64,000 nt of DNA from an uncultured candidate division Zixibacteria bacterium (GCA_963713865.1 OY970208.1:1728001-1792000); one strand, 5' to 3'; shown: positions 1 to 9,356, numbered from the stretch's first letter. Translations and numbers: made by a program. Notes: generated by a model not told the origin, from the sequence alone.

Positions 1-5
1 AGCAG

Positions 6-1391
6 ATGAAGATATGGTTTTCGAATGTGGATATTTCAAAAGAAGCCGTTTGCTACAGAGCTTTTAATAATCCACCCAGAGAAGAGATATGTTCCTATTG
101 CCCGACCTGTAAGACGTTAAATGACGGGCAAGTCCATGAATCGGTAACAGATATTCCGACTGGAGAAAGAATTGTCAACTATAGATTAATTTCATCTCCG
201 ATCAAAGATATGGATGGAAAAGTTATATCAGCCATAGAAATGGTGGAAGACATCACTGAAAGGAAAAAGCTTCAAGAACAGTTGATCCAAACAGAAAAAT
301 TAGCCGCAGTAGGAACCTTAGCTTACGGGATTGCCCACGAGTTCAACAATATCTTAGCTGGCATGCTGGCAAATGCGGAGTTGGGTCTGGTCACGGACGA
401 GCCCCGGCAGATCAAGGAGTGTTTTGAGATCATAGCGGATAATTCTCATCGAGCCGCAAGCATTACCAACAATCTTTTAGCCTTTGCCCGGCAGAAAGAG
501 GCGAGAAAAGAGTTAATCGATATAACCGAGCCTTTGAGAAGCGTTTTAGCAGTAACCCGGCGTGACTTAGAGAAGCTCAACATAGAGATCGAGGAGAAAG
601 TCAAACCTATCCCTAAGATTTACTGTGATGCCGGACAACTATCCGAGGTTTTCTTGAATATGGTCACCAATGCCCGGGATGCTATGCATCCTAAAGGAGG
701 AACTCTGACAATTCAGGTTGAACCGGACCAGGATAATATCCGGATCATCTTCAAAGATACTGGTTGTGGGATACCGGAGGAGATAAGGGGAAAAATCTTC
801 GAGCCTTTTGTAACCACCAAGGGAGTATTAGGTGGAAGTGAGGTTCCTGGAACAGGCTTAGGGCTTTTCCTCACCTACGGGATAATAAACGGTTATCAGG
901 GAAAGATTGAGGTGGAATCAAAAGTGGGTAAAGGAACACAGTTTATTATATCAATCCCTGTTTCCAAAAACCTGCCTCCCCAACCTGTTCAGGAAATTAA
1001 GAATGAACCTTTCGGGGAGATTGAGAGGAAATTGAAAATCCTGTTAGTGGATAATGAGGAAACGATAGTTTCCGGTTTAAAGAAGTTTTTAGAATCCAGG
1101 GGGCATCAGGTAACCTCCTCTTTACGAGGGAAAAAGGGGTTAAGACTTTTCAAAAAAGATAAGTTCGATTTAGTTTTATCTGACATTACCATGCCGGATA
1201 TGGATGGGATAGAGCTGATTAAAAAGATTAGAGAGCAGGATCAGGAGATCAAGATCATAGTGATAACCGGACATATAATGCAAGTAAAAGAGAATGAAGC
1301 CTGGAAAGCCGGGGCTGATGAATTTTTAATCAAGCCGTTTAAAAATGAAGTGCTGTGTTTGGCTATATCAAAATTGATGACGGAAATTTGA
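6..1391 (+). CDS. Hybrid sensor histidine kinase/response regulator (PAS-HisKA-HATPase-REC), probably 5'-truncated by the window edge
   Basis: H-box IAHEFNN, N-box NARDAM, G1 DTGCGI, F-box FEPFVTTK, G2 GTGLGL; C-terminal receiver (LSDITMPDMDG, KPF). Confidence 0.92.
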   Translation: MKIWFSNVDISKEAVCYRAFNNPPREEICSYCPTCKTLNDGQVHESVTDIPTGERIVNYRLISSPIKDMDGKVISAIEMVEDITERKKLQEQLIQTEKLAAVGTLAYGIAHEFNNILAGMLANAELGLVTDEPRQIKECFEIIADNSHRAASITNNLLAFARQKEARKELIDITEPLRSVLAVTRRDLEKLNIEIEEKVKPIPKIYCDAGQLSEVFLNMVTNARDAMHPKGGTLTIQVEPDQDNIRIIFKDTGCGIPEEIRGKIFEPFVTTKGVLGGSEVPGTGLGLFLTYGIINGYQGKIEVESKVGKGTQFIISIPVSKNLPPQPVQEIKNEPFGEIERKLKILLVDNEETIVSGLKKFLESRGHQVTSSLRGKKGLRLFKKDKFDLVLSDITMPDMDGIELIKKIREQDQEIKIIVITGHIMQVKENEAWKAGADEFLIKPFKNEVLCLAISKLMTEI

Positions 1392-1411
1392 GGTTTTGAT
1401 AAATAAAATTT

Positions 1412-1439
1412 GTAGAGACGCATTGCTATGCGTCTCTAC
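1412..1439. repeat. GTAG-type REP-like palindrome
   Basis: GTAGAGACGCAT-tgct-ATGCGTCTCTAC perfect inverted repeat; degenerate relative at 13451. Confidence 0.8.
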
Positions 1440-1443
1440 TTTC

Positions 1444-1503
1444 TGGAGTGTAAAGCCTCAAGGTCTTGTCCACAGGATCCTGGTGAAGACTTTAGCTTTA
1501 CCC
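1444..1503 (+). repeat. GGAG-type ~60 bp dispersed palindromic element
   Basis: TGGAGTGTAAAGCC...GGATCCTGGTGAAGACTTTAGCTTTACC; inverted copy at 19035-19094, shorter copy at 46392-46433. Confidence 0.75.
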
Positions 1504-1619
1504 TTTTGTGACCGTCAGGTTTCCTGACCCGATTCGACACAAGCGAACCAGATCGGTCCACCTCAGGCGAATGGCAAGCACAGGGAATAGAATTAATAAA
1601 TAAAATCTAATATATATTA

Positions 1620-1642
1620 ACACTGACTGATTTTGTCAGTGT
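1620..1642. promoter_or_regulatory. Palindromic operator-like site TGAC-N7-GTCA
   Basis: ACACTGAC-tgatttt-GTCAGTGT just upstream of a TTGACA hexamer in front of the sigma-54 activator gene; related sites at 3418, 4551, 5464. Confidence 0.6.
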
Positions 1643-1891
1643 ATTAAAAATATTTTTAAATATTAGTTGACAAAATAAGGGTAATACCCTATTTACATAA
1701 ATAGAAAATAATGGTTTAATAGATAATATTATTGTAACAACATGGAGTTACTTTCAGACAGGATGTCTAAAATATCTGTAGAAAATACAATCAAATATCA
1801 TCTCTTTTACATAAAAAACCCAAACAGATTATCATCCTCTAGGGTATAGTTATTCTATTTAGAGTGATTTCCATTTGGGAGAGGAAAATAT

Positions 1892-3235
1892 ATGGTTTCT
1901 GTCTTAATTGTTGAAGATGAAGATTCTCTGAGGAAAGCTTTATCTCAGCTACTGCTTAATAAAGGATATGAAGTTACTGAGGTAAGTGACGGGAATGAAG
2001 CTTTTTCCATCCTGGAAAAGAAAAATTTTGACCTGGTAATAACTGATCTCAGGATGAAAATAGTCTCCGGAGAAGAGGTTTTAAAAAAGGTAAAAGAAAT
2101 CTCACCTGCAACTGAGGTAATTATCATAACAGCTTATGGGACAATTCAATCAGCCGTTGCTGCTATGAAAGCAGGGGCTTTTGATTATATCACAAAACCC
2201 TTCAAGGTGGAAGAGATACTGAGCATTCTGGATAAAACCATTGAAAAGAAAAAGATTTTTGAAGGGATTAAGTTTGAAACAAAAGAAGGAGATTATTCTT
2301 TTACAGAAATAATATATGTTTCCAAAATAATGGATGATATAATCCAGCTTATCAAGAAGATAGCTCCCACAGATATAACGATTTTAATCGAGGGTGAATC
2401 CGGAACCGGCAAAGAGCTTTTAGCCCGGGTGATTCATAAAAATAGCTTGCGCAAAAATGAAGCTTTTGTAACAGTAAACAGCAATCTTCCTGAAACCCTT
2501 TTGGAAAGCGAGCTTTTTGGATATGTCAAAGGGGCATTCACCGGTGCTTTTTCCGATAAAAGAGGACTCTTTGAAATAGCTAATTCCGGGTCTGTATTTC
2601 TGGATGAGGTCTCTGATACCAGTCCTGCTCTGCAGACGAGGTTGTTAAGAGCTATTCAGGAAAAAGAGATCAGAAGAGTAGGAGGGGAAGAATTCATCAA
2701 AGTGGATGTCAGGTTAATAACAGCTTCTAATAGAAATCTATCGACTTTAGTTAAAGAAAGAAAATTCAGAGACGACTTATATTATCGAATAAATGTTATG
2801 CCTATCTATCTCCCTCCTTTAAGAGAGCGGACAGAAGATATAGTTCCCTTAGCCAAACATTTTATAAAAAAATATGCTGAGTCTTATCAGAAAGAGGTTG
2901 AGGAAATAGATGAGGAGTTGAAGGATGAGTTTCAGAATTACCACTGGCCTGGAAATATAAGGGAATTAGAACATACTATTGAACGGGGAGTTGCCCTGGC
3001 CACTTCTTCTATTCTGGATAAAACTTCCATACTCTTTCTTCCAGAAGACGAAAAACACTGGTTACCTGAGATTGAAAGCGAGACTCTCAATTCCCTCAAA
3101 AACAATGAAAAAGCTCAGATTATTAAAACTTTAAAAGAGAATAAGTGGAATTATTCCAAATCAGCTGAAGAGTTAGGGATAAGCCGAACAACACTCTGGA
3201 GAAGAATGAAGGAATATGGATTAAAAGAAGAATAA
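1892..3235 (+). CDS. Sigma-54-dependent response regulator (NtrC/AtoC family; REC-AAA+-Fis HTH)
   Basis: REC, GESGTGKE, ESELFG, GAFTGA, FLDEV, WPGNIREL, HTH LGISRTTLWRRMK. Confidence 0.95.
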   Translation: MVSVLIVEDEDSLRKALSQLLLNKGYEVTEVSDGNEAFSILEKKNFDLVITDLRMKIVSGEEVLKKVKEISPATEVIIITAYGTIQSAVAAMKAGAFDYITKPFKVEEILSILDKTIEKKKIFEGIKFETKEGDYSFTEIIYVSKIMDDIIQLIKKIAPTDITILIEGESGTGKELLARVIHKNSLRKNEAFVTVNSNLPETLLESELFGYVKGAFTGAFSDKRGLFEIANSGSVFLDEVSDTSPALQTRLLRAIQEKEIRRVGGEEFIKVDVRLITASNRNLSTLVKERKFRDDLYYRINVMPIYLPPLRERTEDIVPLAKHFIKKYAESYQKEVEEIDEELKDEFQNYHWPGNIRELEHTIERGVALATSSILDKTSILFLPEDEKHWLPEIESETLNSLKNNEKAQIIKTLKENKWNYSKSAEELGISRTTLWRRMKEYGLKEE

Positions 3236-3251
3236 TAATTGAACCAGTTGG

Positions 3252-3388
3252 TTTCAAATTGAAAGTCGGTATTTCAAAGTGAAACATTTAACAGTCCTAC
3301 ATCTAATATAGGCACTCCCGTAAGTTATTGTTAATCAATAAGTTATAATTTATCCTTCAAGATTATCTGGTTGGGCATTCTATTTGCT
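3252..3388 (+). promoter_or_regulatory. Sigma-54 promoter region: two enhancer-like palindromes, an IHF-like site and a -24/-12 element
   Basis: TTTCA-N3-TGAAA at 3252-3264 and 3272-3284; AATCAATAAGTTA (WATCAANNNNTTR) at 3333-3345; GGGCATT-ctat-TTGCT at 3373-3388. Confidence 0.7.
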
Positions 3389-3417
3389 TTAATAATTTCT
3401 AATATATTTTTTCCAAT

Positions 3418-3436
3418 ACTGACTGGTTCTGACACA
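3418..3436. promoter_or_regulatory. Operator-like motif TGAC-N7-GACA upstream of the WYL gene
   Basis: ACTGACTGGTTCTGACACA, similar to sites at 1620, 4551, 5464. Confidence 0.55.
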
Positions 3437-3492
3437 GGGCGTCTTAGATTTGAATTTGAGAGGAGTATTATATATAAGAGAAAGGACATCGG

Positions 3493-4527
3493 ATGTCCAA
3501 ATATGCTCGACTCCTACAGGTTTTAAATCTATTGAAAAGCAGACCTGGGATTTCAGCTAAGGATTTAGCACTGGATTGTCAGGTATCCAGAAGAACAATT
3601 TTCCGGGATATTCTCTCCCTCTGTTCCGCAGAAATACCAGTTTTTTACGACAAGGGTTATCGGCTCCTTCCAGGAACATTTCTACCTACTTTAAACTTCG
3701 ATCTGGATGAATATCTGACCCTGAAAAGTATCTTATCCGCAGATCTGTTCAAGAATAAAAACTTTCTGGGCAATACCATACTGAGTGTCCTCTCGAAGAT
3801 TGAAATAAATTTAAATTCTGATTTAAAAGAGAAATTGAAGGAGATCTGTATTCCTTTACACTTTTCATTCCAGACAAGCAACGGGGATAAGGACCGAGCT
3901 TTTATATTCAAGATTTTGAAAGAAGCCGTCCTGGAGAAAAGAAGCATTATTTTGAATTACGGAATTCGGGACTTATTCAAATCCGATTTCAAAGTTGATC
4001 CGGTCAGTTTGGCTCTCAAGCAACAGCGGTGGTATCTTGTAGGAAACTGCAGAAATTACAATGTTTATTTCCCTTTCAGTCTGGATTACATTAATAGAGT
4101 TACTTTAACCAATAGCAATTTTAGTCTGACAAAGGATTTTTCACTGAACGACTTTTTTGAGAAGAGCCTGGGTGTATGCCAAACAAAGTTAATCGAGGTG
4201 GAGCTGCAACTTCTCAAAGAGAATAAATATTTTTTAGATAATATTTCAAATCTGATTATAGATCTCTCAAAACATAAAGATGGCTCAATTTCGTGCAGAT
4301 TGAAAGTGAAAGGAGTAAATGAGCTTGCCAGATGGCTTTTAGGTTTTTCAGGCGAGGTGAAAGTGATAAGCCCGTCTGAACTGAAAGAAAGATTGCTCAA
4401 GCTTTTAGATAATCAAATGAGAATTTATCAGAAAAGAAACAAAGTGAGAAAATGGGTTCCGGTTTGTTCTTTTTATGAGAAGTACAAGTTGCTATGCAGT
4501 GATCTCTGCCTGGATCCGGTGTTTTAA
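3493..4527 (+). CDS. HTH-WYL-WCX transcriptional regulator (YafY/PafBC-like) with a Cys-rich C-terminal extension
   Basis: wHTH VSRRTIFRDI; WYL motif RWYLVG; WCX RWLLGFSGEVKVISPSELK; tail KWVPVC..C...CLDPVF. Confidence 0.92.
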   Translation: MSKYARLLQVLNLLKSRPGISAKDLALDCQVSRRTIFRDILSLCSAEIPVFYDKGYRLLPGTFLPTLNFDLDEYLTLKSILSADLFKNKNFLGNTILSVLSKIEINLNSDLKEKLKEICIPLHFSFQTSNGDKDRAFIFKILKEAVLEKRSIILNYGIRDLFKSDFKVDPVSLALKQQRWYLVGNCRNYNVYFPFSLDYINRVTLTNSNFSLTKDFSLNDFFEKSLGVCQTKLIEVELQLLKENKYFLDNISNLIIDLSKHKDGSISCRLKVKGVNELARWLLGFSGEVKVISPSELKERLLKLLDNQMRIYQKRNKVRKWVPVCSFYEKYKLLCSDLCLDPVF

Positions 4528-4550
4528 ATAGTTTAAAAATATTTTAAACT

Positions 4551-4569
4551 TATGACAGGTTCTGACATA
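4551..4569. promoter_or_regulatory. Operator-like imperfect palindrome, copy 1
   Basis: TATGACA-ggttc-TGACATA, one mismatch from the perfect palindrome TATGACA-N5-TGTCATA. Confidence 0.55.
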
Positions 4570-4614
4570 TTGAATTTCGATAAACTTAACAGGGAAATTA
4601 ATAGGGGGTACTGC

Positions 4615-5019
4615 ATGAAACAAAACCGCGATTTACTTCTACGGGTATTATCAGGCAAATTATTCTCCAAATCCGGATCCACCGGAGAGGACGAGAAAAG
4701 AGAAATTGCCATCAGGGCCATCCAGAAATTGATGGCCAGCATCTCTTATTATATAGTCGATCCTCTAACTGTGGTTCAAGCAAAAGCTGAGCTTTTAGAA
4801 GAATCTCTAAAAAAGAAAAAATTAAAAGGAGAGGAGATAGAAAGTTTCATATCTTTATGTAAAGAGCAGTTCCGCAAGATAAATCTGATTTTGAACGCCT
4901 TAAGTTCTCTTTCCGAGCTCAGGTATAGAAAATATCCCTTAGGCATAGAGATAATCGATATAGAAGATAAGATCAAAAAAGATCTGAGATCAAAACTGGT
5001 CTTGCGGAAAACAGATTAA
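4615..5019 (+). CDS. Stand-alone HisKA/DHp-like protein with Tyr at the phospho-His position, paralog 1
   Basis: ATG after AGGGGG RBS; LMASISYYIVDPLTVVQAKAELL resembles the H-box xSHxINNPLTVIxGxAELL; no catalytic ATPase domain. Confidence 0.75.
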   Translation: MKQNRDLLLRVLSGKLFSKSGSTGEDEKREIAIRAIQKLMASISYYIVDPLTVVQAKAELLEESLKKKKLKGEEIESFISLCKEQFRKINLILNALSSLSELRYRKYPLGIEIIDIEDKIKKDLRSKLVLRKTD

Positions 5020-5035
5020 TGCAGATGGAACTCAA

Positions 5036-5156
5036 CAGGAAGGAAAGAGGGTAAAGGGAGTTTATCCAGAAACCGGTCTTGTCCGGGGGGCTGGGACTGG
5101 TTTCATCCTTCCCCCAAGCTGGGCTCCTAAGGGGGGGAGCCCAGCTTTCCTCTTTT
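5036..5156 (+). ncRNA. Putative structured RNA (three hairpins closed by a terminal stem), copy 1
   Basis: GGGTAAA/TTTATCC, GAAACCGGTC/GACTGGTTTC, AAGCTGGGCTCC/GGAGCCCAGCTT, AAAGAGG/CCTCTTT; compensatory changes versus copy 2. Confidence 0.55.
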
Positions 5157-5160
5157 AACT

Positions 5161-5440
5161 CTTCTGCCTAAAGATTATTCTTTAGATAATTATTTTGAGA
5201 ATAGCTGAGGGGTATGTCAAGCCAAGTTGATTAAGGTAGAGTTGAAACTTCTAAAAGAGAATAGATATATTTTAGATAATCTTTCATCTCTGGTTGAAAA
5301 TACCTCAAAATCTAAAATGGGGTAATCAGCAGAGAATCTATCAGAAAGGAAGTAGAGTGAAAAAATGGGTTCCGGTTTGTCCGCTGTACGAGGAGTTCAG
5401 ATTGTTGTGTAATGATGCCTGCCTGGATCCGGTGTTTTAA
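5161..5440 (+). pseudogene. Remnant of a second WYL gene (3' part, in-frame TGA, internal deletion)
   Basis: Translates LLPKDYSLDNYFENS*GVCQAKLIKVELKLLKENRYILDNLSSLVE, matching WYL FSLTKDFSLNDFFEKSLGVCQTKLIEVELQLLKENKYFLDNISNLII; then NQQRIYQKGSRVKKWVPVCPLYEEFRLLCNDACLDPVF*. Confidence 0.85.
5357..5440 (+). CDS. Possible 27-aa Cys-rich peptide equivalent to the WYL C-terminal tail
   Basis: AAGGA 6 nt before GTG; MKKWVPVCPLYEEFRLLCNDACLDPVF; synonymous and conservative changes versus the WYL tail. Confidence 0.4.
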   Translation: MKKWVPVCPLYEEFRLLCNDACLDPVF

Positions 5441-5463
5441 ATAGTTTAAAAATATTTTAAACT

Positions 5464-5482
5464 TATGACAGGTTCTGACATA
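5464..5482. promoter_or_regulatory. Operator-like imperfect palindrome, copy 2
   Basis: Identical to 4551-4569. Confidence 0.55.
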
Positions 5483-5527
5483 TTGAATTTCGATAAACTT
5501 AACAGGGAAATTAATAGGGGGTACTGC

Positions 5528-5992
5528 ATGAAACAAAACCACGATTTACTTCTACGGGTATTATTAGGAAAATACTTCGAAGAAGAGAAAAAAGAAATCT
5601 CCATAGAAGTCATCGAGAAATTGATGACCACTATCTCTTATTATCTGGGAGACCCTTTAACCGTAATTCTGGGAAAAACCGAGCTGTTAGAAGAATCTCT
5701 AAAAAATAGAGATTTGCACAGGGAGGAAATAGCGGATTTCCTCTCTTTATGCAGAGATCAGCTCACCAGGATAAGCCTGGTCTTGAATACTTTACAATCT
5801 CTTAATGAGCTCAGATATAGAAACTATCCCCTGGGTATTGAGATGATCGATATAGAAGACAAAATCAAACTCGGTCAGGAGAAGAATCAGAACCCATCTG
5901 AAGTTGACCAGGATATTTTAGTTCGCAGTTCCGTTGGAGTTCCACGGAACAGGTTGAGGAAGACGGAACTCTACAGGAAGGAAAGAGGATAA
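5528..5992 (+). CDS. Stand-alone HisKA/DHp-like protein with Tyr at the phospho-His position, paralog 2
   Basis: LMTTISYYLGDPLTVILGKTELL ... LRYRNYPLGIEMIDIEDKIK; clear paralog of 4615-5019. Confidence 0.75.
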   Translation: MKQNHDLLLRVLLGKYFEEEKKEISIEVIEKLMTTISYYLGDPLTVILGKTELLEESLKNRDLHREEIADFLSLCRDQLTRISLVLNTLQSLNELRYRNYPLGIEMIDIEDKIKLGQEKNQNPSEVDQDILVRSSVGVPRNRLRKTELYRKERG

Positions 5993-6090
5993 AAGTAGTT
6001 ATCCCGAAGCCGGTCTTGTCCGGGGGGCTGGGACTGGTTTCATCCTTCCCCCAGGCTGGGCTCTTAGGGGGGAGCTCAGCCTTCCTCTTT
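5974..6090 (+). ncRNA. Putative structured RNA, copy 2
   Basis: GGATAA/TTATCC, GAAGCCGGTC/GACTGGTTTC, AGGCTGGGCTC/GAGCTCAGCCT, AAAGAGG/CCTCTTT. Confidence 0.55.
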
Positions 6091-6125
6091 AATTCGCTGA
6101 CCTGATCATAAAGAGGTTAAAAATT

Positions 6126-6317
6126 ATGAACTGCTGGGATTTTATTAAATGTCCTCAAGAGTACCGGGAGTATTGCCTGGCTTACCCGAACTACGGTAAA
6201 ATCTGCTGGAAAGCAACTTTGGTAAGTTGTAAAACCGGTAAAATTCTTGATTCCGGAAAGAAGCTGGAAGAGTGTTTGAGGTGTGAATTTTATAAATTCA
6301 GAAAACCAAACATATAA
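6126..6317 (+). CDS. Small Cys-rich 'two-CW'-type protein
   Basis: AGAGG RBS; NCWDFIKC...CLAY...ICW...C...CLRCEFY. Confidence 0.75.
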   Translation: MNCWDFIKCPQEYREYCLAYPNYGKICWKATLVSCKTGKILDSGKKLEECLRCEFYKFRKPNI

Positions 6318-6576
6318 ATAAAGCAAAGGGTTGAAGCAGAATAAATGAAGAAGTAAAGCTATAACTATCAGGTAGCAATGGGGTGGCACTATAAAATAAA
6401 AGTTTTTCTCCATAGAGGAAGAGGTTCTTCTTCGGGAGGGGTGGATCCCTTAAAATGAGCTACAGGATAATAAAATATCCTAAAGGTAGTTTAGAAAATA
6501 GAGCTACCTTTAAATTTTATTGCTAATGACTGATAGGCATAAAAAGTTAGGTTCCTACCATCTAAAGAGGGCTATT

Positions 6577-8700
6577 ATGAGATCAAAACATTATTTAGGT
6601 ATAGCTCTGTTGTCACTGTTAGTTTCAGGAGTAAATATTTTGTCAGCTCAAACCTCAGATGAACTTGACGATCTGATGAAGATGAGTTTGGAAGATCTCT
6701 TAAATGTTTCCGCCGTTTCTGGCGTTCGTCATGAACAGAGGATTATAGACTCCCCCAGATCGATCTCCGTTATTACCGCAGAAGAGATTAGAAAGAAAAA
6801 TTTTCGCAGCACCCCGGAAGCTTTGAACGAGCTGGTTGGTATTCTGATCCAGGAAACAAATTACGGAGGAGGATCGCCTATCATCCGGGGATTGATTGGA
6901 AATCAGATTTTAATCTTGATTGATGGGGTCAGATTAAATAATGCCATTTTCCGTCTTGGACCGAATCAATACCTAAATACCATCGATCTTAATCAAATTG
7001 AAAGGATCGAGATAGTGCGAGGACCCGGCTCAGTGCTTTATGGCAGCGATGCCTTAGGAGGTTTAATTAATATCATCACCAAGTCCAGAAAAGGCTATAG
7101 TAAAGATCTGGATATCGGCGCAAGATTTTATACTCGGTATGCCAGTGCGGATAAGGGGAAAATTGGACGTATTGACCTCAGCGGAAATATCAAGAAAATG
7201 GGTATTACGGGAGGATTTAGTTATAAAATATTTGGTGATCTGCGAGCCGGGGATGGAGTAGGGTTTCAACCCTTTACCAGTTATGATGAGTGGAATCTTG
7301 ATCTCAAAATGAATCTTGAATTATCAAAGCGACAGAATGTTTCAATCGGTTTGCAAAAGGTCGATCAATTAAATCTACCTCGAACAGATAAGCTGATATC
7401 GGGTTCAGACTTAAAACATGAATGGGATCCAGAAGGGAGGGATCTGCTCTATGCACAATATGAATTTGAAAAAATCAACTCTTTGGTTAACAAGCTTTAT
7501 GCTGGGTTCTCTTATCAAAATCAATTAGAGGATTTATATATAATTACCAGCTCTAAACCAAAGATCCAGCAAGAGCTTCACAATGAAGTCAAATCAGTTG
7601 GATTTACATTTCAACTAATTTCTGAACTGGGTAAACATCAGCTCTTAACTTATGGTGCTGAGTATTACGCGGATAATATTGAAAGTCATAGAGTAGATGT
7701 CGATATCACTACAGGTACACGCACCAACAAAAAAGGCACATTTGCTGATGGTTCAACTTACCGGTCCACCGCAGGATTTTTGCAGGATGAGATACGGTTG
7801 ATGAAATCTATATCCCTGATTATTGGGGTAAGATACAGTTGGTTTGATGCCCAGGCTACAGTTGATGATCCGCTAACCGGAGCTATCCAGGTCCATTCTA
7901 CTCCTACCGCCTTGACTACAAGTGCCAGAGCTTTGTATAAATTGACAGAGAATCTCGTTGTTACTTTTGGTGTTGGTCAGGGCTTCAGGGCTCCTAATAT
8001 CGACGACTTGTCAATTTTGGGGAGTTTCGGCAGTGGGTTCGAGGTCCCCAATCCAAATCTCGAACCGGAGCAGAACATAAATTATGAGATCGGTCTTAAG
8101 GCGCAGCATAGAAAATTTACCGGTTCCTTATATTATTTCCTCAGTAATTATAAAGACTTAATCGAGCGAGGTACCGGCACTTTTAACAACCTTCCATTTT
8201 TGGATAACAATGGCAACGGTATCCAGGATCCAGGAGAGCAGAGTGTTTTTCAAAGAAAGAACATAGTTAAAGCACGTATCCGGGGGGTTGAGGCAGAGGG
8301 ACAAATCCAGATTTTACCTGCATGGACTGTCCTGGGTAATCTTGCCTGGATTAAGGGCGATAATTTAGCTGATAATACACCACTTAGACGCATCCCGCCG
8401 ATCAAGGGGAAATTCAGCATAGAGTGGAGGTTGAAAAATAATTTATGGACGGAATACTACAATTTGTTTGCTACCAAACAGGATAGACTTGCACCAGGGG
8501 ACCTGCAAGACCCTCGTATCCCTGTGGGTGGCACACCTGGATTTTTAACCTTCAATATCCGAGGAGGGCTGGATCTCAACAGATTTGGCAATGTCACAAT
8601 TGGCTGGGAAAATATAACGGACAAAGCCTACAGACTACATGGTTCCGGTATTGATGGCCCCGGCATTAATCTTGTGGTTGGTTATGAGTTAACCTTTTAA
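6577..8700 (+). CDS. TonB-dependent receptor
   Basis: Signal peptide, plug (SISVITAEEI; IERIEIVRGPGSVLYGSDALGGLINIIT), NPNLEPE, C-terminal YELTF. Confidence 0.93.
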   Translation: MRSKHYLGIALLSLLVSGVNILSAQTSDELDDLMKMSLEDLLNVSAVSGVRHEQRIIDSPRSISVITAEEIRKKNFRSTPEALNELVGILIQETNYGGGSPIIRGLIGNQILILIDGVRLNNAIFRLGPNQYLNTIDLNQIERIEIVRGPGSVLYGSDALGGLINIITKSRKGYSKDLDIGARFYTRYASADKGKIGRIDLSGNIKKMGITGGFSYKIFGDLRAGDGVGFQPFTSYDEWNLDLKMNLELSKRQNVSIGLQKVDQLNLPRTDKLISGSDLKHEWDPEGRDLLYAQYEFEKINSLVNKLYAGFSYQNQLEDLYIITSSKPKIQQELHNEVKSVGFTFQLISELGKHQLLTYGAEYYADNIESHRVDVDITTGTRTNKKGTFADGSTYRSTAGFLQDEIRLMKSISLIIGVRYSWFDAQATVDDPLTGAIQVHSTPTALTTSARALYKLTENLVVTFGVGQGFRAPNIDDLSILGSFGSGFEVPNPNLEPEQNINYEIGLKAQHRKFTGSLYYFLSNYKDLIERGTGTFNNLPFLDNNGNGIQDPGEQSVFQRKNIVKARIRGVEAEGQIQILPAWTVLGNLAWIKGDNLADNTPLRRIPPIKGKFSIEWRLKNNLWTEYYNLFATKQDRLAPGDLQDPRIPVGGTPGFLTFNIRGGLDLNRFGNVTIGWENITDKAYRLHGSGIDGPGINLVVGYELTF

Positions 8701-8768
8701 AATAAAATTTTAGGGTAGTGTTTAACTGGAATGGTTAAATAGAGATATAAATTAATATCGCTGAATCC

Positions 8769-9356
8769 ATGAAGAAATTCGGAACTCCAATTTTTAGATT
8801 GGTTTTGACTATCATTTTGACATTCTCAGGGACAGCAAGGTTTCATGCTCAGGAAATGGTGGTTCCGATCAAATTACAGTTAGCCCTTTTTTTAAAAATA
8901 TTGCCTTTTGATTGGAACCTGAAAGATAGAGTTGGTAATGAAATTGTTTTCGCTATTTTCTATCAAAATAATTTTGGGATATCTTATAATGCAAAAGAGG
9001 GATTCTTAAAAGTGGTTAAGGAATCTTCCGTAAAAGAAATCGATGGTATTCCGCTTCGCTTTGTATCGATCGATATTGAAGAGACCGATCTCGCAGAAGC
9101 CATTACAAGAGATAATGTGGATATTCTTTATATAACCCCGCTTCGCGCAATGGAAATTGAAAAGATCACTAACCTGAGTCGAGCCCAAAAAATAACGACC
9201 TTAACTGGTGTACCTGATTATGTTGAGTCAGGGCTTGCCGTTGGAGTCGGTGTTAAAGGCGAAAAACCGCTGATCATCATAAATTTAAAAGCGGCAAAAG
9301 CTGAAGGCGCTGATTTCAGTTCGCAGTTATTGAAGTTAGCAAAAGTCATCGAGTGA
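8769..9356 (+). CDS. YfiR/HmsC-family periplasmic protein
   Basis: Signal peptide; C-terminal IIINLKAAKAEGADFSSQLLKLAKVI; located between the TonB receptor and a HAMP kinase. Confidence 0.85.
   Translation: MKKFGTPIFRLVLTIILTFSGTARFHAQEMVVPIKLQLALFLKILPFDWNLKDRVGNEIVFAIFYQNNFGISYNAKEGFLKVVKESSVKEIDGIPLRFVSIDIEETDLAEAITRDNVDILYITPLRAMEIEKITNLSRAQKITTLTGVPDYVESGLAVGVGVKGEKPLIIINLKAAKAEGADFSSQLLKLAKVIE

Follow-up and report, generated by a model that had tools for sequence, protein, structure and literature searches.

What role does a WYL-domain transcription regulator play when its gene stands between that of a sigma-54 activator and that of a histidine kinase-like protein that lacks the phospho-acceptor histidine? 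This question is raised by positions 1620 to 6317 of a stretch of 64,000 nucleotides (nt), here called the window and numbered from its first letter (GCA_963713865.1 OY970208.1:1728001-1792000), which lies inside a single 2.72-Mb contig, 94% complete, from an uncultured sediment bacterium of the candidate division Zixibacteria. The features of this locus are on the + strand. The locus consists, in order, of a gene for an enhancer-binding protein (EBP), two inverted-repeat sites, a predicted sigma-54 promoter, a predicted operator, the WYL regulator gene, a further predicted operator, a gene for a small protein that we call sm, predicted to consist of a dimerization and histidine phosphotransfer (DHp) domain only, and a structured RNA with a predicted terminator.

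An initial annotation, made from the sequence of the window alone, had taken this block for an undescribed regulatory circuit. From the comparison of related genomes we conclude that it is a conserved cassette, predicted to be regulatory, of one Zixibacteria order, located upstream of efp. We propose that the EBP would act through sigma-54 on a transcript carrying the WYL gene, sm and the RNA, and we give this mechanism as a whole a probability of about 0.55, with most of the doubt attaching to what sm binds and to what the RNA does. Each part is of a known kind, and it is the combination that is absent from the literature searched: no cassette of WYL, sigma-54 and two-component parts is described there, in agreement with the annotation, and nothing was found on Zixibacteria together with sigma-54.

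Conservation of the cassette

In what follows, G000 is the genome of the window, f1 its family (nine genomes, namely G000 and eight relatives), and f2, f4 and f17 are other families; L numbers denote loci. The order set comprises 34 genomes and the phylum set 285. The synteny that the initial annotation had proposed looking for is indeed present: the WYL gene, an sm gene without the acceptor histidine and the hairpin element stand together in seven of the nine f1 genomes and in all three loci returned by a metagenome scan for relatives, each of which carries the full cassette. The EBP gene is found in six of these seven f1 genomes; the 2.6-kb contig of G004 ends before the EBP position. The other two f1 genomes are G005 (90% complete), where a flanking HDOD gene lies directly beside efp with no cassette, and G008 (74% complete), which gave no match. 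The second family with the cassette is f4, in which G013 has EBP, WYL, sm and efp in order and G011 has the WYL-sm pair at a contig end, both keeping one hairpin of the RNA (P3). Another family of the class (L068/G080, L069/G046 and L078/G036) has a WYL orthologue (31-34% identity) as the immediate same-strand neighbour 5' of efp, so that the adjacency of WYL and efp seems older than the insertion of sm.

The sigma-54 activator and its predicted promoter

The first gene of the cassette (1892..3235) encodes an NtrC-family sigma-54-dependent activator that shows every hallmark of its class: Pfam matches comprise a receiver domain (Response_reg, 9.5e-31), the AAA+ domain (Sigma54_activat, 8.6e-64) with its AAA lid, and HTH_8 (1.3e-13), and the GAFTGA motif and the receiver (REC) residues D9, D52, T80 and K102 are invariant in eight orthologues. 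Downstream of it lie two inverted repeats, TTTCA-N3-TGAAA (3252-3264 and 3272-3284), which are candidate upstream activator sites for the EBP; they are 20 nt apart and about 100 nt 5' of a sigma-54 promoter-like site, and are kept in 7/7 f1 genomes, while in G013 the string TGTTTCA is present twice between the EBP and WYL genes. The promoter-like site (3373..3388, GGGCAT-N5-TTGC, with -24 GG and -12 GC) has one mismatch to the consensus scanned (TGGCAY-N5-TTGCW). The element recurs in all seven f1 genomes that have the cassette, as TGGCAT-N5-TTGC in six and in the GGGCAT form in the window, and G013 has TTGGCAT-N5-TTGCA; the genome also encodes rpoN (188 bits). An NtrC-type activator followed by a sigma-54 promoter pointing into the WYL gene is what the initial annotation had described, and the domains, the conserved element and rpoN bear it out.

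In its REC-AAA+(GAFTGA)-HTH_8 order, its paired upstream sites and its GG-N10-GC promoter, the system resembles other NtrC-family activators; it differs in its target, a WYL regulator gene, a pairing without report in the literature searched. Further sigma-54 promoters before sm or within the RNA were considered and dropped, as reading by eye gave no -12 GC.

The WYL regulator and its predicted operators

The WYL gene (3493..4527) encodes, by its domains, an HTH-WYL-WCX regulator of the DriD/PafBC/BrxR/CapW class, with Pfam matches to HTH_11 (2.4e-8), WYL (1.7e-11) and WCX (2.7e-10), all above cut-offs; its best PDB match is PafC (E 6.5e-4). Since HTH-WYL proteins of this class sense nucleic acids and usually control damage or defence genes, the initial annotation had drawn a link to DNA damage and phage stress, and the cassette could on that account be a damage or anti-phage switch like those of PafBC, DriD, BrxR and CapW, its WYL domain sensing single-stranded DNA (ssDNA). 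The domain architecture fits such regulators, and the PADLOC WYL models match the protein (E 2.7e-28). However, none of the genomes examined has genes for repair, nucleases, restriction or abortive infection within the cassette or next to it, the neighbours being signalling genes and efp, and WYL ligands are not ssDNA only, as one WYL regulator senses cyclic di-GMP (PMC11880434). The link is therefore one of analogy, and we consider a damage or defence switch distinctly unlikely.

The EBP, WYL and sm genes are each preceded by a shared 15-nt motif, TGAC-N7-G(T/A)CA. O1 is a palindrome, CACTGAC-N7-GTCAGTG (1621..1641, with the core TGACTGATTTTGTCA at 1624-1638), about 250 nt 5' of the EBP start, and is kept in the five f1 genomes with that region available and in 3/3 metagenome loci. 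O2 (TGACTGGTTCTGACA, 3420..3434) is situated about 30 nt 3' of the -24/-12 element, which would place it at approximately +20 to +35 of a transcript from the predicted sigma-54 promoter, and it precedes the WYL start by 59 nt; it is kept in 7/7 f1 genomes (with one half-site mismatch in G004), in the three metagenome loci and in G013, where a fully palindromic form occupies the same place. O3a (TGACAGGTTCTGACA, 4553..4567; 0.87 identity) precedes the start of the first sm gene, sm1, by 48 nt, and its duplicate O3b, found by repeat search, lies at 5466..5480; O3 is kept in all nine f1 copies (G001 with one mismatch), in G011 and G013, and in the three metagenome loci. The initial annotation had counted four such sites, before the EBP gene, the WYL gene and both small genes. 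All four are present and conserved, but the second sm gene, sm2, with its motif and its hairpin, belongs to one tandem duplication with the sm1 unit and is not an independent observation, which leaves three independent sites.

The motif has a close parallel. DriD, a Caulobacter activator of HTH-WYL-WCX type with a solved structure, binds ATACGAC-N7-GTCGTAT, with an AT-rich centre, as a dimer and has a site in the promoter of driD itself, and a DriD-type site is found in the promoter of 68 of 69 DriD homologues (PMC10853764). DriD and the cassette protein share the HTH-WYL-WCX domain order and the GAC-N7-GTC geometry, with predicted sites of CTGAC-N7-GTCAG type here before the WYL gene and neighbouring genes, and a palindromic site in the regulator's own promoter region (here O2, as predicted from sequence alone). 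They differ in that the two proteins have no detectable close sequence relation, that the cassette WYL gene stands behind a sigma-54 promoter and an EBP, and that the predicted target is a signalling protein, not repair or division genes.

We also scanned 18 further WYL loci of the phylum, with about 1.5 kb of flank each. Four of them, all from f17 (L065, L067, L070 and L076), carry TGACAG..TG[AT]CA 45-90 nt 3' of the WYL gene, before a short WYL paralogue (about 210-230 amino acids) in a PafB/PafC-like tandem, and have no sm or EBP gene within the flank scanned; the other 14 have no comparable motif. Because the f17 loci carry the motif beside WYL genes without sm or EBP nearby, the motif appears to travel with WYL.

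These observations bear on who binds the motif. It could be the EBP, through HTH_8, or an unlinked regulator, the WYL gene then being a mere target: an EBP is encoded in every f1 cassette and in that of G013, the EBP would bind inverted repeats as a dimer, and O1 lies upstream of its gene. Nevertheless, O2 is 3' of the -12 element, which is no place for an enhancer, the separate TTTCA-N3-TGAAA repeats already stand at the usual enhancer distance, the f17 motifs adjoin WYL genes without an EBP in the flank scanned, and the geometry is that of the DriD site. Binding by the EBP or an unlinked regulator is in our judgement unlikely, and the motif is most likely the operator of the WYL protein.

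O3 is followed 11 nt on by a conserved TTTCGATAA box, and the f2 homologues of sm share a CCGATAA box; if the TTTCGATAA box were a -10 element, O3 would cover the -35 region of a possible internal promoter, which we note as a lead only. Elsewhere in the genome, TGACTATTTTTGTCA at G000:C1:2601130 (position 3130 of L082) matches O1 at 13 of 15 positions; it is found within a stretch of about 960 nt without an open reading frame (ORF) of at least 70 amino acids, between two convergent genes.

A predicted DHp-only protein without its histidine

The window has two sm genes: sm1 (4615..5019) encodes 134 amino acids of a type with an SKSGSTG insert, and sm2 (5528..5992) encodes 154 amino acids of the common orthologue type; in both, Tyr replaces the acceptor His. 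We place their starts at ATG 4615 and 5528 because homologues align from that Met, a conserved AGGGGG (with the GGGGG ribosome site) stands 6-7 nt 5' of it, and the earlier ATG (4552 and 5465), which we rejected as a start, falls within the conserved DNA motif. The Pfam HisKA scores of the two proteins, 18.3 and 21.5 bits, are below the cut-off of 26.9. A profile of the family does match the DHp domain of HK853 in PDB (E 1.5e-5), and places the first Tyr of an S-Y-Y sequence on the acceptor His. Among 37 close relatives, this position is Tyr in 28, Phe in nine and His in none, and the next residue is Tyr throughout (37/37), in accord with the earlier description of two small HisKA-like genes with a His-to-Tyr change. 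Because Phe, which is non-phosphorylatable, occurs at the acceptor position, sm function cannot depend on phosphate there. The protein also has no ATP-binding domain, since it stops about 25 residues past the second DHp helix, and a Pfam scan gave no HATPase_c match in sm.

More distant relatives place this loss in context. In the f2 homologues of sm (26-38% identity) the sequence S-H-Y-L-N-T-P-L-T is retained, and these proteins score 28.6-36.6 bits, above the Pfam cut-off for HisKA. A wider search of 1.84 billion representatives (E 0.001) brought only 78 proteins to threshold, with His at the acceptor site in 65, Tyr in five, Phe in two, Asp in three and Glu in one, the site not being covered in two. 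In 67 of the 78 the protein terminates with the DHp domain, and HATPase_c occurs in only two of the 42 that were scanned with Pfam; the remaining architectures are stand-alone, REC-DHp (about 222-250 amino acids), HDOD-DHp (about 420-433 amino acids), PAS-DHp and HAMP-DHp. In this clade (P0037-P0114; also L025:6760-8022 and L040:13909-14730) the H-box is mostly of an unusual form, S-H-Y-(I/L)-N-N, and the proteins that end in DHp may be unrecognised phosphotransfer proteins; the literature searched holds almost nothing on stand-alone DHp or HisKA proteins. We suggest that sm derives from this ATPase-less clade, which mostly keeps the His and whose members are plausibly phosphotransfer proteins, and the alignments indicate that the acceptor His was lost in its WYL-linked lineages.

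A simpler account would make sm a functionless, decaying remnant of a truncated histidine kinase gene, for its HisKA scores are below cut-off, both the His and the ATPase domain are gone, and one copy lies beside a dead gene fragment. Decay is hard to reconcile with 36 database clusters with open frames, with 30 invariant and 27 nearly invariant columns, with two paralogue types that are each conserved, with the conservation of the ribosome site and operator, and with membership of a clade in which 67 of 78 proteins end in DHp. We regard a remnant as scarcely credible.

As to partners, the closest paralogue of sm in its own genome is an HDOD-DHp protein (28% identity, E 5e-9), the gene of which directly flanks the cassette in G003, G006, G007 and L054. 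A predicted complex of an sm dimer with the EBP receiver scored 0.15, 0.33 and 0.33, and one control 0.20, values that give no answer either way.

Several known proteins offer models for a kinase-like protein without kinase activity. Histidine phosphotransferases of the Spo0B/ChpT type are DHp-based, have no kinase activity and dock receiver domains. The His-bearing f2 homologues of sm and the REC-DHp and HDOD-DHp relatives could act in this way; the f1 and f4 proteins, in contrast, have no His, cannot carry phosphate, and lack the CA-like domain that Spo0B and ChpT keep. In the RetS-GacS system one kinase-family protein blocks another by DHp-DHp pairing. The likeness is that sm has a close DHp paralogue, the HDOD-DHp protein, as a candidate pairing partner, and the difference is that RetS is a full hybrid kinase whereas sm is predicted to be DHp only. 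The third model is DivL of Caulobacter, in which a Tyr (Tyr550) stands for the phospho-acceptor His of a HisKA-type DHp domain, as in sm, and which binds DivK~P without kinase or phosphatase activity (PMC4211667). DivL, however, keeps PAS and CA domains and is membrane- and pole-associated, whereas sm is by prediction a DHp domain only, in a protein of 134-154 amino acids, and may also have Phe at the position (9/37). Because sm is without PAS and CA domains, it is not a member of the DivL family, and would be at most DivL-like in action.

A predicted structured RNA behind sm

Each sm gene is followed by a copy of an RNA element of about 130 nt: copy a at 5023..5153, and copy b at 5961..6088, the 5' end of which overlaps the final codons of sm2. 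Both are predicted to fold (-65.0 and -63.6 kcal/mol, z -3.0 and -2.3) as a three-way junction and then a GC-rich terminator hairpin of 13 pairs (5116-5147 and 6053-6082), with the tails TCCTCTTTTA and TCCTCTTTAA, both T-rich and interrupted by C. The element thus ends in a predicted intrinsic terminator. The same multi-hairpin element behind each small gene had been noticed in the initial annotation; it is seen in both copies, and the repetition reflects the one tandem duplication.

A covariance model built from nine copies matches in seven of the order's 34 genomes, namely G000 plus six of its f1 relatives, always directly 3' of sm, and in the three metagenome loci, with no match outside f1 among the 34. 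In an alignment of five genomes, the RNA is the best-conserved part of the 3.7-kb locus: its 40-nt windows reach 0.90-0.97 identity, against nucleotide means of 0.75 for the EBP gene, 0.74 for WYL, 0.69 for sm and 0.67 for the two-CW gene downstream. Only the long hairpin P3 is recognisable in f4, where the 5' arm is altered and pairing largely kept (G-C to A-U, G-U to A-U and U-G to C-G, with one A-C mismatch in G013) and the G-rich 3' arm, GGGGGGCUGGG(G)ACUGGUUU, has hardly changed. A 3' arm that stays nearly constant while the 5' arm changes suggests a sequence-specific role beyond pairing. Searching the 285 phylum genomes for the P3-arm pattern gave eight matches outside f1 and f4, all of them away from sm and WYL genes and lacking the matching hairpin, and an Rfam search of window positions 1-9000 on both strands had no match at E up to 1. 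We regard the element as a candidate new structured RNA family.

Could the hairpin be a strong intrinsic terminator or an mRNA-stabilising 3' structure and nothing else, insulating efp or the two-CW gene from sigma-54 transcription? Its 13-bp GC-rich stem and T-rich tail in both copies, its constant place at the 3' end of sm and the absence of an Rfam match all suit that role. It would be unusual, however, for a terminator to be the best-conserved 130 nt of its locus, as this element is, with an identity across genera that exceeds that of the AAA+ core of the EBP, and neither the three-way junction nor the P3 hairpin, which survives in f4, is required for termination. A terminator-only role is possible but doubtful, and the conservation of the RNA suggests a further one, either as a stable RNA derived from the 3' end of the transcript or as a site to which a protein binds. 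More speculatively, the WYL domain could have this RNA as its cognate effector, in which case the regulator would read the level of the 3' RNA of its own operon and gate a two-component pathway through the His-less sm. The hairpin core is found only where WYL adjoins a His-less sm (f1 and f4), and the G-rich 3' arm is constrained beyond the needs of pairing, both of which fit; we nonetheless rate this as a long shot.

Other observations concern the RNA more loosely. The genome has a csrA gene (G000:C1:1966597-1966755, 86.7 bits), and since GGA occurs several times in the RNA, once within a hairpin loop (AAGGAG), CsrA may bind it. The 3' end of a murJ-like gene (L003:1501-1531; G000:C1:2384497-2384527) contains 30 nt that match part of the element at 90% in the same sense, which we judged to be chance. 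The genome has no further copies beyond the two local ones, and for this reason a dispersed repeat or miniature inverted-repeat transposable element was rejected. Also set aside were a small peptide (a reverse-strand ATG frame has 14 codons in G000 and only eight in G007) and a terminator/antiterminator switch between the P3 3' arm and the terminator, which is not conserved in f4.

The proposed circuit and what weighs against it

We propose that a kinase would phosphorylate the EBP at D52, and that the EBP would then bind the TTTCA-N3-TGAAA sites and open the sigma-54 promoter to give a WYL-sm-RNA transcript. The WYL protein, as a DriD-like dimer, would bind the GAC-N7-GTC operators with an occupancy set by the ligand of its WYL domain: O2, in its own leader, would mediate self-repression, O3 would act before sm, over the -35 region of the possible internal promoter, and O1, upstream of the EBP gene, would provide feedback. 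The sm protein would form a non-phosphorylatable DHp four-helix dimer that docks receiver domains or pairs with a related His-bearing DHp protein, for example the neighbouring HDOD-DHp protein, and so damps or re-routes phosphotransfer in the manner of a DivL-like or RetS-like pseudo-kinase. The RNA would terminate the transcript. The feedback and the decoy action in this scheme, which the initial annotation had already put forward, stay proposals.

A number of observations count against this circuit. The 64-kb window has five sigma-54-like matches where 3.3 are expected, so that a match alone is unremarkable and the predicted promoter is supported by its conservation and context instead. The string TGACWGRTTYTGWCA occurs four times in the 2.72-Mb genome, every time in the cassette locus and on the + strand, and not at all in three Markov-simulated genomes, a count that is circular because the pattern was written from those four sites; the looser CTGAC-N7-G[AT]CA is not enriched (21 sites, with 14-18 in the simulated genomes). 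O2 and O3 of f1 end in GACA and are imperfect palindromes, although G011 and G013 carry palindromic GTCA versions, for which reason we treat the GACA form as a variant of one motif, and in G013 no O1 was found before the EBP gene. Of 473 RNA pair cells, 98.9% keep their pairing, compared with 45-63% for slid partners, in an alignment fitted to the model and made up of close kin; covariation is thin, only two pairs having changed on both sides, and it does not prove the structure, with which the data are compatible. The AlphaFold2 monomer of sm is poor (overall predicted local distance difference test score, pLDDT, of 58), with helices at 26-59 and 65-94 where ten-residue blocks reach pLDDT of about 59-86. 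Finally, the His-bearing f2 homologues of sm often adjoin CHASE8 kinases and have no adjacent WYL gene, which means that the DHp protein does not need WYL. The f2 loci with CHASE8 hybrid kinases are those of G012, G014, G019 and G032, together with G029, which has a TonB receptor and YfiR between, and a looser recurrent link between the sm family and CHASE8 kinases is possible.

Duplication and neighbouring features

The tandem duplication was found by repeat search: the segment from about 4125 to 5160 recurs at 5163-6090 with 74-93% identity. The duplicated copy takes in the last third of the WYL gene, which now has stop codons and persists as a dead 3' WYL fragment (5163..5440). G006, which belongs to another genus, shows this arrangement too, down to the dead fragment, and 10 of the 37 family members in the alignment are of the sm1 paralogue type with the SKSGSTG insert; because the arrangement recurs and sm1 is a distinct type, the duplication is either old or has spread between lineages. 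DNA identity between G000 and G006 is 86% over the duplicated segment (window 4782-5886 against L029:1-1105, comprising the 3' part of sm1, the RNA, the dead WYL fragment and the 5' part of sm2), compared with 73% over the EBP and WYL genes, and sm1 proteins are 92-94% identical. Lateral exchange, gene conversion or very strong constraint would explain this contrast.

About 120 nt 5' of the EBP start, a conserved non-coding block (ACATGGAG...AGACNGGATGTCTAAAAT, 1740..1773) has 0.87 mean identity across five genomes in the alignment; its pattern ACATGGAG...AGAC-N5-GTCTAAAAT holds a small inverted repeat of its own. Further upstream, a multi-PAS hybrid kinase of 1724 amino acids ends at 1391, on the same strand.

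Downstream of RNA copy b is a gene for a Cys-rich two-CW-like protein of 63 amino acids (6126..6317), which scores 33.6 bits against NF045718 (31.8 bits in the genome search), below the cut-off of 35; no paper on the two-CW domain was found in the literature searched. The gene is present in eight of the 11 loci with readable downstream sequence, and absent in G004, L056 and G013. In the window, it is followed by genes for a TonB-dependent receptor, a YfiR-like protein, a CHASE8 kinase, two single receivers and a REC-GAF kinase, and then by efp. The initial annotation had presented the cassette as sitting directly upstream of a TonB-YfiR-kinase cascade. That holds for the window, but among the seven cassette genomes the block separates cassette and efp in G000 and G001 only, and for that reason we regard it as an insertion outside the conserved unit; in G002, G003, G006 and G007 the two-CW gene is directly followed by efp.

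GC-rich, hairpin-forming inserts of 150-300 nt occur in G006 and G007 (in the gap between the RNA and the two-CW gene) and in G004 (after the RNA), and are absent from G000 and G001 at these places; comparable hairpins lie at window 1440-1600, and the inserts may represent a small family of mobile repeats. A second gene of the WYL family in the genome (G000:C1:1553922-1554897, L083) shows a 172-amino-acid ORF followed by a stretch with stops, and may be split or decaying.

Significance

WYL regulators are known mainly from the control of DNA damage and phage defence, and here one is found, together with a likely operator, as part of what we propose to be a circuit of sigma-54 and two-component signalling. 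The candidate RNA family appears to be under stronger constraint than the proteins around it, and if it were the effector of the WYL domain, the cassette would contain an RNA-sensing WYL transcription factor wired into phosphorelay signalling. All parts of the cassette are small and accessible in vitro, despite the uncultured host. Without its histidine and without an ATPase domain, sm would be about the smallest pseudo-kinase conceivable, and, coming from a little-noticed DHp-terminal clade, would be a clean case for how DHp decoys or adaptors shape phosphotransfer.

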